Assembly (NCBI GenBank): GCA_037127795.1
Contig: JBAXXQ010000001.1
Coordinates: forward strand, 78,607 to 142,606
DNA length: 64,000 nt
Reading direction: 5' to 3'
Source: a bacterium
Lineage (GTDB): Bacteria; Patescibacteriota; Minisyncoccia; Phycocordibacterales; UBA9973
The position numbers and the translations under genes are program-made. Positions 30,225-57,538 of the stretch are shown here, piece by piece (positions within the stretch are counted from its first letter, which is position 1; every line of letters starts with the position of its first letter). Under the pieces are notes generated by a model, which was given only the letters and a program-made list of their open reading frames with translations, searched no databases and was not told the origin of the DNA.

Positions 30225-30680
30225 TTAAAAACCGAGGCGTTCCATTATTTTCACCCCGAATGATTCTCGGAGGAAGCTTTCTTCTGCCTTTGTTTTTATA
30301 GCTTCTCGTACCTGGTCTACAGTGACCCCTTCTAGGTGCAAAACCCGGAGGGAAACAAAGCTTCCAGGGACGAGTAATAATAGCTTATCTGGTTTTTGAC
30401 TTTCGTCAAGCCAGAACTGCTTTATCCCTACAAAAGGGATCATTTCATCATTTACCAAAATACCTTTTTCTTCTATAGAAATAGTGAGCTCGCGAGGCTT
30501 ATGAAAAGACATAATAATCACCGTTGCTCCGGCAATAATGGCAAAAATACCAAAAAAGAGGTTTGAAAGAAGAAAAGATATTATAGCGACTGCGACTGCA
30601 ACAAGCCCTGCATACCAGATCCAGTCTGGATGGCGATCTTTTTCTTCGAATTCAAGTGTTTTCCATGTGAGTGGTTCCAT
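30225..30680 (-). CDS. hypothetical membrane protein
   Basis: Two TM helices then soluble domain; 151 aa. Confidence 0.35.
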   Translation of the reverse strand: MEPLTWKTLEFEEKDRHPDWIWYAGLVAVAVAIISFLLSNLFFGIFAIIAGATVIIMSFHKPRELTISIEEKGILVNDEMIPFVGIKQFWLDESQKPDKLLLLVPGSFVSLRVLHLEGVTVDQVREAIKTKAEESFLRESFGVKIMERLGF

Positions 30681-30747
30681 ATAAAAAGTATATCATCTAT
30701 TGATTTTTCCAGCACCCTCTATATACTCATACTATGAGTTATACAGT

Positions 30748-31761
30748 ATGAATATAGTTTTTTTTGAAACAACGAACGAAGAAAAAGAAATATTAAGTAA
30801 GACATTTGCAGGTTTTTCTGTTACCTGTACAGATAAAAAATTAACAAAAGAGACTGTCGATATGGCGAGTGGTGCAGATATTGTTTCTGTATTTGTGAAT
30901 TCTACTGTGAGTAGTGAAGTGATTGACGCATTACCAAATCTCAAACATATCTCTACTCGATCGACTGGGTACGACCATATAGATAGTGTATATGCAAAGA
31001 CAAAAAATATCAGTGTCTCTACGGTACCATCATATGGATCAGAGACTGTTGCAGAGTTTGCATTTTCATTATTGTTAAACCTTTCTCGCAAGACGAGTGA
31101 TGCGGTACGACAAATTCGCGAAGAAGGAAGTTTTGATATAAGTCATTTTAGAGGATTTGATCTCGCTGGTAAGACTATCGGTGTCCTCGGTACGGGGAGA
31201 ATAGGGAAGCATGTGATTACTATTGCACAAGGTTTTGGTATGAAGGTTGTTGCATTTGATGCGTTTCCAAATACTGCATATGCGACAGAGCAAAATTTCA
31301 CTTACGCACCATTGCACGAAGTACTTGCACAATCTGATGTGGTCACTATTCATACCCCATACAACAAAGATACATTTCATCTGCTCAATAAAGAATCTAT
31401 CGCAAGTATGAAAAAAGGAAGCTATCTTATCAATACTGCTCGCGGAGAGATTGTCGATACTGAAGCGCTCATCTGGGGATTACAAGAGGGTATTATTGCG
31501 GGTGCTGCGCTTGATGTGCTCGAAGGAGAGCGACCACTCAAAGAAGAAGCAGAATTTCTTTTTGCAAAAAGTACTAGCGATGTTTCAAAAGAACAAGAAT
31601 TCAAAATCCTTTTGGAAGATCATATGTTGATGAAAATGCCGCAAGTACTCATCACGCCACACATTGCATTTTCTTCTGTAGAAGCAGAAAACGAAATTCT
31701 CAAAACAACTATAGATAATATTGAAAGCTTTATTCATAACACACCAAAAAATACTATATGA
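30748..31761 (+). CDS. D-isomer-specific 2-hydroxyacid dehydrogenase (D-lactate/phosphoglycerate dehydrogenase family)
   Basis: NAD-binding GVLGTGRIGKHV, catalytic Arg/Glu/His region; start at ATG 30748 (MNIVFFETT). Confidence 0.75.
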   Translation: MNIVFFETTNEEKEILSKTFAGFSVTCTDKKLTKETVDMASGADIVSVFVNSTVSSEVIDALPNLKHISTRSTGYDHIDSVYAKTKNISVSTVPSYGSETVAEFAFSLLLNLSRKTSDAVRQIREEGSFDISHFRGFDLAGKTIGVLGTGRIGKHVITIAQGFGMKVVAFDAFPNTAYATEQNFTYAPLHEVLAQSDVVTIHTPYNKDTFHLLNKESIASMKKGSYLINTARGEIVDTEALIWGLQEGIIAGAALDVLEGERPLKEEAEFLFAKSTSDVSKEQEFKILLEDHMLMKMPQVLITPHIAFSSVEAENEILKTTIDNIESFIHNTPKNTI

Positions 31762-55015: not shown

Positions 55016-55048
55016 AAACCAAAACCGCCCCCGTGGCGGTTTTTTTAT
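55016..55048 (+). terminator. rho-independent terminator
   Basis: aaaaccgcccccgtggcggtttttttattt. Confidence 0.75.
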
Positions 55049-55074
55049 TTGTATTTTTGCTATACTCAGTCACG

Positions 55075-56433
55075 ATGACTCAAGCACAGGTATTGGATAT
55101 TTTGAAAACAGGTGCAAATGTATTTGTAACAGGAGAGCCTGGTGCTGGTAAAACACATACTATACATGCATATATTGAATATCTGCGAAAACACAAAATA
55201 GAGCCAGCGATCACCGCGAGTACTGGTATTGCCGCGACGCATATAGGTGGGATGACTATACATTCTTGGAGTGGTATAGGTATCAAGCAAGATATGAGTG
55301 CGTATGAGCTCGATGCGCTTGCGACCAAAGAGTATGTAGTAAAACGTATTATGAAAACAAAAGTGCTCATCATAGATGAGATATCTATGCTTACACCAAA
55401 AATGTTTTCTCTTGTTGATACAGTCTGTCGTATGGTCAAACAAAACCCGGAACCGTTTGGTGGTATACAAGTTGTTTGTGTGGGAGATTTTTTTCAACTT
55501 CCACCAATAAAAAAAGCTGCACCTGTATTACAGAGTATGGAGCTTTTTGCAGAAAAGCCTGCGACATTCGTATACGAAAGTGATACATGGGAAAAGCTTG
55601 GTATGCTTGTTTGTTATATCACCGAGCAACACCGCCAAAGCGATACTGATTTTCTCGATCTATTGTCTGCGATACGAAGCAATACTATAGAAGAAGGGCA
55701 CTACACGACACTACAAGATAGACTTATCACTCCTGCAGAAATTCCTGAAGAAACAACAAAACTTTTTTCACTCAATGCCGATGTTGATATGATAAATACT
55801 CGTGCACTTGCAGAGCTTCCAGGCGATATGCGCACATATACTATGAGCACCTATGGTAATGATCTGATAGCAGCAAGTTTACAAAAAAGTTGTTTATCTC
55901 CCGAAGTGCTGCAATTAAAAAAAGATGCCGTAGTTTTGTTTACAAAAAATAATCCTGCAAAAGGGTTTGCAAATGGGACACAAGGAGTGGTGATAGATTT
56001 CAATCCGCTTGGGTACCCTATAGTAGAAACAAAATCTGGAAAAATAATTCATCTCGAACCGATGGATTGGAGTATTGAAGATCAAGGAAAAATAAAAGCA
56101 ACAATCTCTCAAATACCATTGCGTCTCGCATGGGCTATCACGGTACACAAAAGTCAGGGTATGTCGCTCGATAGGGCAGTCATGGATCTTTCGAGTGTGT
56201 TTGAATACGGGCAAGGGTATGTTGCACTTTCTCGAGTACGCTCACTCAAAGGACTTTTTATCTTAGGAATAAATAATCGAGCACTAGAAGTTCACCCGCA
56301 GATATTGCATATTGATCAAGTGTTTAGAAAACAAAGCGATGCTATAGCAGACGCATTTGCAAAAATGAAAAAAACAGAGCTTACCAAAATGCACAAAAAT
56401 TTTGTTGTTGCAGTCCAAGGTGAGTGGAAATAA
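55075..56433 (+). CDS. PIF1/RecD-family (SF1B) 5'-3' DNA helicase
   Basis: Walker A VTGEPGAGKTH, DEISML, GDFFQLPPI, C-terminal HKSQGMSLD; leaderless behind TGcTATACT (55058-55066). Confidence 0.75.
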   Translation: MTQAQVLDILKTGANVFVTGEPGAGKTHTIHAYIEYLRKHKIEPAITASTGIAATHIGGMTIHSWSGIGIKQDMSAYELDALATKEYVVKRIMKTKVLIIDEISMLTPKMFSLVDTVCRMVKQNPEPFGGIQVVCVGDFFQLPPIKKAAPVLQSMELFAEKPATFVYESDTWEKLGMLVCYITEQHRQSDTDFLDLLSAIRSNTIEEGHYTTLQDRLITPAEIPEETTKLFSLNADVDMINTRALAELPGDMRTYTMSTYGNDLIAASLQKSCLSPEVLQLKKDAVVLFTKNNPAKGFANGTQGVVIDFNPLGYPIVETKSGKIIHLEPMDWSIEDQGKIKATISQIPLRLAWAITVHKSQGMSLDRAVMDLSSVFEYGQGYVALSRVRSLKGLFILGINNRALEVHPQILHIDQVFRKQSDAIADAFAKMKKTELTKMHKNFVVAVQGEWK

Positions 56434-56459
56434 AACTTTTTTGCTATACTATTTTTACT

Positions 56460-56843
56460 ATGGAAAAAGATTTTGATTCTTGGAATAGTATCAAGCAAGA
56501 TATAGAAAAAAATAAAAAATCTTTATATGCAAACCAGCGAGAAGTTTGGTGGTGTTCTATTGGTATTAATGTCGGCTCTGAGTCTTGTGGAAAAAATGAA
56601 TTATTTGAACGACCAGTATTAATACTAAAAGTTATTCAAAAAGAGCTTTTACTTGTGGTACCACTTTCAACAAAAGACAAAGATAGTAAGTATCATATAG
56701 ATATATCTTTTTCTGATACAAAATCTTTTGCTCAACTTGAACATATAAAAACAATAAGTTCAAAAAGACTTTCTAGGAAAGTAGGGAGAATACCAAAACC
56801 TATGTTTGAAAAGGTTTGGTTGTTATATAAAGAGTTGCTATAA
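56460..56843 (+). CDS. MazF/PemK-family mRNA interferase-like toxin (no adjacent antitoxin ORF)
   Basis: REVWWCSIGINVGSE..FERPVLILK...LLVVPLSTK parallels EndoA/MazF GDVYFADLSPVVGSE..VRPVLVIQ..AIVAAITA; TGcTATACT -10 9 nt upstream. Confidence 0.55.
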   Translation: MEKDFDSWNSIKQDIEKNKKSLYANQREVWWCSIGINVGSESCGKNELFERPVLILKVIQKELLLVVPLSTKDKDSKYHIDISFSDTKSFAQLEHIKTISSKRLSRKVGRIPKPMFEKVWLLYKELL

Positions 56844-56847
56844 AATC

Positions 56848-56875
56848 GAAAATCCCCCGAATGGGGGATTTTCTC
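56848..56875 (+). terminator. rho-independent terminator
   Basis: aaaatcccccgaatgggggattttctc. Confidence 0.7.
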
Positions 56876-56992
56876 GGAGCCCGAAGGCCATGTAATACAA
56901 GTATATATGTATTACTATATAAGTCAAATATGGATAATATATAAAACTATTGACATTTCATACTCATATATGATAATGTTTATTTAAATAAA

Positions 56993-57538
56993 TTGGCTAA
57001 AAGCCGTCAAATTAAAAATTATATAGAAATGGAGGAATCTTTATTTTTACAAGATATGGGTACAGTATCACTTGGTGCCTGTAGGACATTTATCACAAAG
57101 GATTTTTTTACAGAATGTAATGAAGACTATATAGAGAGATTTATATTTTGTCGTGCATTTAAGAAAAAAATAATACCTGTTGCGTCTACTACGATAAAAG
57201 CTAAAGCTATACTTCTAAAAAGGAGGAAGCTTATCGGTCCTGCGTATGATAGTATTATTTTAGCTAAGTTTAGTGATCCACCAGTTTTAAGTGTAGATAG
57301 TTTTTTAGCATACCTTAAAAAACTTATTAGTAATCAACCTAAAATTAAAGAAGGAAATCTTCTTACTAATGGTTACCCTAATATATTTTTTGTACAATTA
57401 GATGGTCGGATTGTTATTGTTGATGCAGTATGGAGTACTAGTCTACTTATATGGTCTCTTCGCTGTTTTGAAATTGATGAATTTTCTGAGAATTTAAAAG
57501 GTGCTTTTGTTTTCTTTCCTATTACTACTAAAACTTAA
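56993..57538 (+). CDS. hypothetical protein
   Basis: 181-aa ORF; TTGACA-N17-TATGAT-like promoter ~56950; start uncertain. Confidence 0.3.
   Translation: MAKSRQIKNYIEMEESLFLQDMGTVSLGACRTFITKDFFTECNEDYIERFIFCRAFKKKIIPVASTTIKAKAILLKRRKLIGPAYDSIILAKFSDPPVLSVDSFLAYLKKLISNQPKIKEGNLLTNGYPNIFFVQLDGRIVIVDAVWSTSLLIWSLRCFEIDEFSENLKGAFVFFPITTKT

Follow-up and report, generated by a model that had tools for sequence, protein, structure and literature searches.

A conserved convergent two-hairpin RNA accompanies a MazF-like gene of Patescibacteriota and is a candidate antitoxin

Introduction

Type I toxin–antitoxin (TA) systems in which toxin and RNA antitoxin are transcribed convergently and overlap at their 3' ends include par fst/RNAII of Enterococcus faecalis and txpA/RatA and bsrG/SR4 of Bacillus subtilis (reviewed in PMC6563280 and PMC8167048). 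Their toxins are small hydrophobic membrane peptides of fewer than 60 amino acids (aa), while ribonuclease (RNase) toxins related to MazF occur in type II systems (MazEF, PemIK) and, with structured RNA antitoxins, in type III systems (ToxIN, CptIN, TenpIN). Here, we analyse a MazF-like gene (56460–56843, + strand) in a stretch of 64,000 nucleotides (nt), hereafter the window, from a bacterium of the Patescibacteriota (Minisyncoccia, Phycocordibacterales, UBA9973; assembly GCA_037127795.1, contig JBAXXQ010000001.1, positions 78,607 to 142,606), together with a predicted small RNA of ~50–55 nt that is encoded convergently at its 3' end (56840–56893, - strand). We propose, with a probability of roughly 0.6, that the two form a module of MazF-fold toxin gene and convergent RNA antitoxin, type I-like in layout and possibly type III-like in action.

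The locus resembles type I systems of the par/fst kind in its convergent transcription, a terminator hairpin that is common to the two genes or overlaps between them, a strong promoter for the RNA and the lack of a protein antitoxin. As for the cis-antisense RNA over the toxin mRNA that defines type I, the prediction comprises a convergent promoter and an RNA ending over the stop codon, both of them conserved. It differs in that the candidate toxin is a soluble MazF-fold RNase of 127 aa rather than a membrane peptide, and in that structure and unpaired bases of the RNA are conserved beyond the overlap as well, a feature for which simple antisense pairing would have no need. As in type III systems, a Kid/MazF-related RNase would be paired with a structured RNA, whose features are compatible with direct binding. 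However, type III antitoxins are tandem repeats, encoded upstream on the same strand and processed by the toxin, whereas here a single RNA without repeats is driven by its own convergent promoter, and the window protein matches PemK, not ToxN/AbiQ. The toxin fold and the positions of the catalytic Arg and Thr are those of type II MazEF/PemIK, but MazE/PemI is absent, and the fold is extended by an additional, conserved N-terminal helix and by five inserted residues in the β1–β2 loop. In Myxococcus xanthus, MazF-mx is controlled by the trans-encoded protein MrpC. The window gene is like mazF-mx (PMC2701414) in encoding a MazF homologue without an adjacent mazE, and unlike it in that a cis-encoded RNA travels with the gene. 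The Rfam pemK RNA motif (RF02913), also a structured RNA, takes its name from an association with pemK; using Rfam 15, it gave no match at E ≤ 10 to the window element, to 17 related loci or to 5 plasmid loci.

Results

A conserved RNA element convergent to the MazF-like gene

We assembled 80 loci from the genomes of different species, each encoding a relative of the MazF-like protein; such matches exist in at least 577 species genomes. Comparison of the 150 nt downstream of each stop codon revealed a common element, the window included. In the window, the predicted RNA starts near 56893 on the - strand with the 5' leader ACAU, followed by the hairpin P1 (56889–56878; GGCC-UUCG-GGCU, 4 base pairs closed by a UUCG loop), the linker CCGA(G), the GC-rich hairpin P2 (56848–56873) and the tail CGAUUUUAU at its 3' end, which overlaps the toxin stop codon (TAA, 56841–56843). 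A terminator scan detected the 56848–56873 hairpin on both strands: on the + strand it would terminate the MazF-like mRNA, and on the - strand it would form the P2 stem and terminator of the RNA. Ahead of the RNA lies a sigma-70-type promoter (56900–56927, - strand) with a -35 box TTGACT (56927–56922), a 16-nt spacer and a -10 box TATACT (56905–56900), matching the consensus at 10 of 12 positions. RNAfold predicted two hairpins with a free energy of -24.2 kcal/mol (z = -4.1), and a covariance model of the family (R1) scored the window copy at 63.8 bits (E ~ 1e-23), its sole full-length match in the window. The original prediction had recommended a search for a small antisense RNA; a candidate is the element running from 56893 to 56840, which it had overlooked and of which the hairpin at 56848–56873 forms part.

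The family consensus on the minus strand consists of TTGACa (-35), 16–18 nt, TATAmT (-10) and 6–7 nt before the RNA start; the RNA consensus reads AUUA, P1 (GGC UUCG GCC), UCCGAG, a variable GC-rich hairpin and CGAUUUU, with the tail over the toxin stop codon. An nhmmer profile located the element in 65 of the 80 loci and in the window, always on the opposite strand at the 3' end of the gene, and R1 gave full-length matches of 26–75 bits in 63 loci and the window. No further full-length R1 match was present in the 644 kb searched, save for tandem second copies in three loci, and plus-strand matches spanned the palindromic hairpin only. The 16 loci missed by R1 hold variants with the same promoter–P1–linker–P2 order (P1 UGGC-ACUA-GCCA; linkers CCGAAG and CUGAAG). 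The element is therefore present at 79 of 80 loci, and the sole locus without it has a truncated gene. On this evidence the MazF-like gene is not really the orphan it had been taken for, as a predicted RNA accompanies it. Separately, a second RNA element was seen in tandem beyond the first at loci L004 (4466–4521), L029 (4446–4497) and L042 (4492–4554), and also at L028, L073 and L211.

Base pairing in the element is supported by covariation. In a model-guided alignment, which leans toward the model, standard pairs fill 89.6% of cells, compared with 65.8% in shuffled controls; the raw MAFFT alignment shows the same swaps. Compensatory double changes occur at all 14 pairs, including 11 of 11 pairs of P2 across 66 sequences, and P1 covaries between GC and CG in 17 sequences. 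The covariation score reached 0.565; shuffled controls gave 0.159, and slid controls no more than 0.117. The minus-strand promoter matches the sigma-70 consensus at 9 or more of 12 positions in 58 of 64 loci, with the -10 box ending 6–7 nt before the start of the RNA model, whereas the opposite-strand control averaged 7.2 of 12. The unpaired GAG and CG bases at the foot of P2 are invariant and, like P1, lie outside any coding region. The linker sequence is not the same in all subfamilies (CCGAG, CUGAAG, CACUG or GUUG). In Rfam 15, no family scored above its gathering threshold in the window or in 17 related loci, the best sub-threshold match being rnk_pseudo (28.8 versus 55 bits). The RNA was also considered as a peptide gene and rejected: just 36 of 64 copies have an ATG close to the 5' end, and these ATGs lie in differing frames and open ORFs (open reading frames) of 2–64 aa.

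The element might instead be a bidirectional terminator with an antisense promoter, acting by transcriptional interference or insulation through a transcript that has no function. Its hairpin is predicted to terminate on both strands, its promoter is aimed at the gene, and we found no site for pairing in trans with the toxin 5' region or coding sequence, where duplex energies of cognate and non-cognate pairs were equal. Neither the covariation of P1 nor the invariant linker bases would be needed for termination or interference, however, and the two-hairpin layout is kept in distant subfamilies despite complete divergence of the sequence. We therefore regard interference without a functional RNA as quite unlikely.

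Absence of a protein partner

The adjacent, co-transcribed protein antitoxin gene that characterizes type II systems (MazE/AbrB, ribbon-helix-helix (RHH) or other) was found neither at the window locus nor across the 80 loci. The original prediction had noted that no antitoxin-sized ORF separates the MazF-like gene from the helicase gene upstream, and the gap of 26 nt between helicase stop and MazF-like ATG is indeed free of ORFs; it had also named a conventional MazE in an operon copy elsewhere as grounds for refutation, and none recurs near the 80 loci. A Pfam search found no MazE-like or other antitoxin-type domain among the 27 small ORFs of the window. All-versus-all clustering of 558 neighbouring ORFs from the 80 loci gave no recurrent protein neighbour: the commonest family occurs at 6 loci, in scattered positions, and the genes flanking the MazF-like gene vary in size, strand and family. 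Upstream gaps are often shorter than 40 nt and lead to large unrelated genes, leaving no room for a protein antitoxin. Clustering of 777 small ORFs from the same loci likewise gave no common peptide. The small-ORF 'families' that did appear map immediately downstream of the stop codon and occupy more than one frame, indicating conserved DNA rather than conserved protein; they proved to be frame translations of the RNA element and led to its discovery. No tandem repeats were found around the MazF-like gene.

Since the gene is seen as a single unit in unrelated contexts, its 3' element could in principle be an attC-like DNA recombination site of a mobile gene cassette, and some variants carry GCCTAAC/GTTAGGC, which is similar to integron core sites. 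Most copies lack these sequences, however, and the inverted repeats make up two distinct local hairpins instead of a single long, imperfect palindrome; moreover, the gene has its own promoter, no recurrent cassette arrays or integrases lie nearby, and the -35/-10 spacing is conserved. The chance that the element is a recombination site appears close to negligible.

Persistence of the RNA after loss of the gene

Association was also examined in the reverse direction, by searching metagenome contigs with a 22-base pattern confined to the part of the RNA outside the ORF, which yielded at least 120 matches. Among the matches listed, 101 have at least 420 bp on the gene side. Sixteen of these are chance matches in high-GC coding sequence ('...SEAEA...'), with no hairpin and at most 27 bits with R1, leaving 85 true elements with scores of 40 bits or more. 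Within the same list, the facing MazF-like gene is intact at 67 of the 85 true elements, reduced to a remnant at 3 and undetectable at 15. The remnants are one C-terminal half and N-terminal stubs left by internal deletions (L092, L158 and L160, the deletion in L158 being in-frame). The RNAs standing alone (L081, L091, L105, L127, L144, L148/L167, L154/L180, L159, L171, L187/L190, L197 and L200) score well in R1. Conversely, an intact gene without the RNA was seen at 0 of the 79 genome loci with an intact gene. This asymmetric decay, in which the RNA sometimes outlives the gene and the gene is almost never without the RNA, is the pattern expected if the RNA is an antidote.

The RNA could also be a genuine partner of the protein without being its antidote, for example as a cofactor, a decoy, or a substrate that the protein binds or processes in a ribonucleoprotein (RNP) with another role. 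The tight and mutual linkage of gene and RNA would fit such an arrangement, as would the conserved unpaired bases, which suggest recognition by protein, the 15 of 85 listed elements without a gene, and the prevalence of the family in tiny symbiont genomes otherwise poor in accessory genes. It is nevertheless unlikely, because the protein keeps the catalytic residues of a toxin-type RNase, and shifting contexts, occasional duplication and decay, and carriage on plasmids are what selfish TA modules show and housekeeping RNPs do not.

The MazF-like protein

The 127-aa protein encoded at 56460–56843 matches PF02452 (PemK_toxin) with E = 2.7e-13 and 50.5 bits against a cutoff of 23.1, over profile positions 2–101 of 109. 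Of the MazF/PemK motif core originally read from the sequence, GSE, RPVLIL and VVPLSTK are present, whereas the 'GDxY' part is absent, its place being occupied by REVWWCSIG. A search of PDB sequences with the single protein returned chance matches only, and the match to B. subtilis EndoA/MazF (4mdx, E = 2.6e-7) required a profile of 36 family members. In the corresponding alignment, Arg51-Pro52, invariant in all 36 members, aligns with R25-P26 of EndoA, and position 70, Ser or Thr across the family and Ser in the window protein, aligns with T48. The equivalents of the catalytic pair (R25 and T48 in B. subtilis, R29 and T52 in E. coli) are thus retained, so that the alignment called for by the original prediction did not disqualify the protein. 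The AlphaFold2 model (mean predicted local distance difference test score (pLDDT) 79.9) adopts the SH3-like β-barrel of the MazF fold, and the top 50 Foldseek matches in the PDB were all MazF, EndoA or MoxT structures with probability 1.00, with template modelling (TM) scores of 0.61–0.68 normalized by query length and 0.66–0.80 by target length.

The N-terminal extension of ~25 aa noted from the start is conserved within the family (M1, F5, W8, N9 and K12) and is modelled as a helix at residues 5–17 with moderate confidence (pLDDT about 65–69). The helix might be a built-in, cis-acting antitoxin that blocks the RNA groove until a trigger removes it, leaving the RNA a secondary role. The C-terminal tail of MazE is acidic, contains a Trp and plugs MazF; the extension here is also acidic with an invariant Trp (DFDxWN). 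Fused toxin–antitoxin proteins exist, EzeT and CapRel among them, and the modest confidence of the helix prediction counts on the same side. Such fusions are mentioned in PMC4826407. Against a built-in antitoxin, few parts of the protein are as well conserved as the extension, which sets it apart from typical fast-evolving, degradable antitoxin segments, and the promoter-driven structured RNA at 79 of 80 loci would be left without explanation, making this design decidedly improbable.

Two further observations concern the protein family. At L008, L009, L012, L056, L061, L070 and L075, the MazF-like ORF lacks the usual stop codon and reads through the RNA element to give proteins of 143–373 aa, which may be annotation artefacts or real C-terminal extensions. 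Some genomes have two MazF-like copies, in tandem or apart (L016, L052 and L054; JACQNQ01, with L009 and L019; JAQBRE01, with L029 and L074).

A probable leaderless layout of the MazF-like gene

The MazF-like gene had been credited with a leaderless-type promoter and a terminator of its own, and both hold up: the extended -10 element TGCTATACT lies at 56442–56450 (+ strand) with the ATG 9 nt downstream, and the hairpin at 56848–56873 follows the gene. The promoter is credible because the same layout, TTTTnTGnTATACT followed after 6–9 nt by ATG, is found ahead of 11 or more genes of the window. No sequence resembling a Shine-Dalgarno (SD) site was found upstream of the family members in 78 of 80 loci, and the mRNA appears, from this layout, to be leaderless or nearly so across the family. 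Masking of a ribosome-binding site is therefore an unlikely means of control.

The pattern extends through the window as a T-rich run, a TGnTATACT extended -10 element, 6–9 nt and the ATG of a long ORF, with examples at 30695(-), 43818(-), 43819(+), 45810(-), 46688, 49248, 50807, 52238, 55058, 56442 and 57584; TGCTATACT itself occurs 4 times against 0.5 expected. This spacing leaves no room for an SD site, suggesting that many mRNAs of the source organism are leaderless.

Breadth of the family and a homologue on Campylobacter pVir

At E ≤ 1e-30 the family comprises 497 clusters at 50% identity, and at E ≤ 1e-10 it comprises 1,992. Relatives belong mostly to the candidate phyla radiation (CPR), namely Paceibacteria, Nomurabacteria and Saccharibacteria. 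Distant members with 31–40% identity lie on Campylobacterota plasmids and a few viral contigs, and have a convergent promoter and two hairpins with other linkers. Viral contigs contributed only 7 protein homologues among 2.9 million, and the exact RNA pattern did not occur in them. Matches on plasmids of Geobacillus and Brevibacillus (Bacillota) have dissimilar N-termini and represent another MazF subfamily; they were set aside.

Plasmid pVir of Campylobacter jejuni 81-176 encodes a homologue at 30630–31034 that is 40% identical over residues 5–103 and has the N-terminus FDEWNxxKK. It is the only annotated toxin gene of the plasmid, has no adjacent antitoxin gene and precedes two hairpins whose order matches that in the window. 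Passages in PMC10470494 and PMC7826846, citing Shen et al. 2016, name the antisense small RNA CjrA as the antitoxin of a type I pair with CjpT on pVir. The pVir homologue is like the window protein in its N-terminus, its lack of an antitoxin neighbour and its two hairpins, and it may be cjpT itself; if so, the window module would be a distant member of a system already demonstrated by experiment. Campylobacter may provide a single experimental precedent for an RNA-controlled MazF module. Our literature search found neither a link between MazF and CPR nor a description of cjpT, and did not find the breadth of the module (CPR, Rickettsiales-type metagenome-assembled genomes and viral contigs) or its conserved RNA architecture described.

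On a Nitratiruptor plasmid, L202, a 62-aa ORF (1955–2143) lies downstream of the homologue and its two hairpins and ahead of a replication gene. By eye its product looks like an RHH/CopG-like protein (…KTIRVEDDLWDKFKKIAK…), and it could be a copy-control protein or a lineage-specific protein antitoxin.

The neighbouring helicase gene

Upstream of the MazF-like gene lies an ORF of 452 aa (55075–56433, + strand), identified in the original prediction as a PIF1/RecD-family helicase; a match to PF05970 (PIF1, E = 5e-33) and a Pif1 2B domain agree with this, placing it as a PIF1/RecD-like helicase of superfamily 1B (SF1B). Helicase and toxin had been proposed to act together as an anti-phage system. 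Such a two-gene system is suggested by the close arrangement of the genes, which are codirectional neighbours separated by 26 nt and lack an intervening terminator in the terminator scan, by the generic RecD-like PADLOC matches of the helicase, and by a near-identical segment of 27–33 nt common to both genes. However, tblastn found no helicase homologue within ±4 kb at any of the 80 genome loci, nor at any of 120 further metagenome loci retrieved by the RNA-only pattern (200 loci in all). The helicase gene has a promoter of its own, TGCTATACT at 55058–55066 (+ strand), preceded by a terminator at 55021–55043. PADLOC, which the original prediction had suggested as a check, matched no model to the MazF-like protein and gave only generic SF1-helicase/RecD-like similarity for the helicase, with partial matches to far longer proteins. 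A joint anti-phage system is accordingly very improbable, and the helicase is a bystander, unrelated to the module. The surrounding genes are housekeeping genes (an ATP-binding cassette exporter, an Nramp transporter and PheST).

The near-identical segment lies in the same strand and frame at 55263–55295 of the helicase gene (HSWSGIGIKQDM) and 56477–56503 of the MazF-like gene (DSWNSIKQDI). No chance matches of this kind are expected, only these two copies occur in the window, and they may reflect a gene-conversion patch. On the other side of the module, an ORF of 181 aa (56993–57538, TTG start) matched nothing in Pfam, NCBIfam or PADLOC. Its sigma-70 promoter (56950–56977; TTGACA-16-GATAAT, 11 of 12) stands back-to-back with that of the small RNA, and clustering of neighbours at the 80 loci did not show the ORF conserved beside the module.

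Discussion

The original prediction had named an RNA antitoxin as one way in which a solitary MazF could be held in check, and the predicted gene for a conserved two-hairpin RNA, converging on the ORF from its 3' side, supports it. In the proposed mechanism, the + strand gene would produce a MazF-fold RNase with a family-specific N-terminal helix from a leaderless mRNA, transcribed from a promoter with a -10 element only. The strong consensus promoter facing it would supply an abundant two-hairpin RNA of ~55 nt that restrains the toxin. As P2 would serve as the terminator of both genes, the RNA would be antisense to the 3' end of the toxin mRNA, covering the stop codon and 3' untranslated region. 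Control would then be exerted by decay of the mRNA from the 3' duplex or by sequestration of the protein. In a type I-like route, loop–loop contact at the common hairpin would lead to a duplex with the mRNA 3' end, followed by mRNA decay; in a type III-like route, the RNase would bind the conserved base formed by P1, linker and P2 directly, and both routes could apply. The antisense overlap leaves the invariant GAG...CG bases and P1 unexplained, since both lie beyond the terminator of the toxin gene. This suggests that they are recognised by a protein, most simply the RNase itself, and the modelled N-terminal helix could dock the RNA or act as a cis-inhibitor. Should the supply of RNA fail, the RNase would no longer be restrained and could cleave cellular RNA.

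Several points weigh against an RNA antitoxin of this kind. The small RNA, its ends and its abundance are predictions from genome sequence, and we infer its transcription; the RNase activity and toxicity of the window protein and its family are likewise presumed from fold and conserved residues. Because its role as a terminator would suffice to conserve P2, the case for a separate RNA can draw only on P1, the linker and the promoter. If the mRNA stops at the common hairpin, its guaranteed overlap with the RNA is ~35–40 nt, which is short. With 15 of the 85 listed elements standing alone, the RNA might also serve some independent function. The linker varies between subfamilies, and any recognition of RNA by protein must co-vary with it. 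The equation of cjpT with the pVir homologue is an unconfirmed lead, to which we give somewhat better than even odds. The route of neutralisation is one we infer from the layout and from the pattern of conserved bases.

More tentatively, and as a possibility we consider rather doubtful, the family could represent an unrecognised and widespread TA class, in which a MazF-fold RNase is bound by a single, non-repeat two-hairpin RNA docked by the N-terminal helix, and which would be a major TA type in CPR/Patescibacteria and other reduced genomes.

If an RNA antitoxin is indeed the partner, a large subfamily of seemingly 'solo' MazF proteins would not be solo, their RNA partner having been missed by gene callers and by Rfam. 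That a small RNA controls the MazF toxin is a testable hypothesis, and the R1 covariance model can be used to find further cases. Should the pVir system belong to the same family, an experimental model would already exist in a cultivable host. The module points to RNA-based control in the ultra-small bacteria of the CPR, in which regulatory RNAs are almost unknown.

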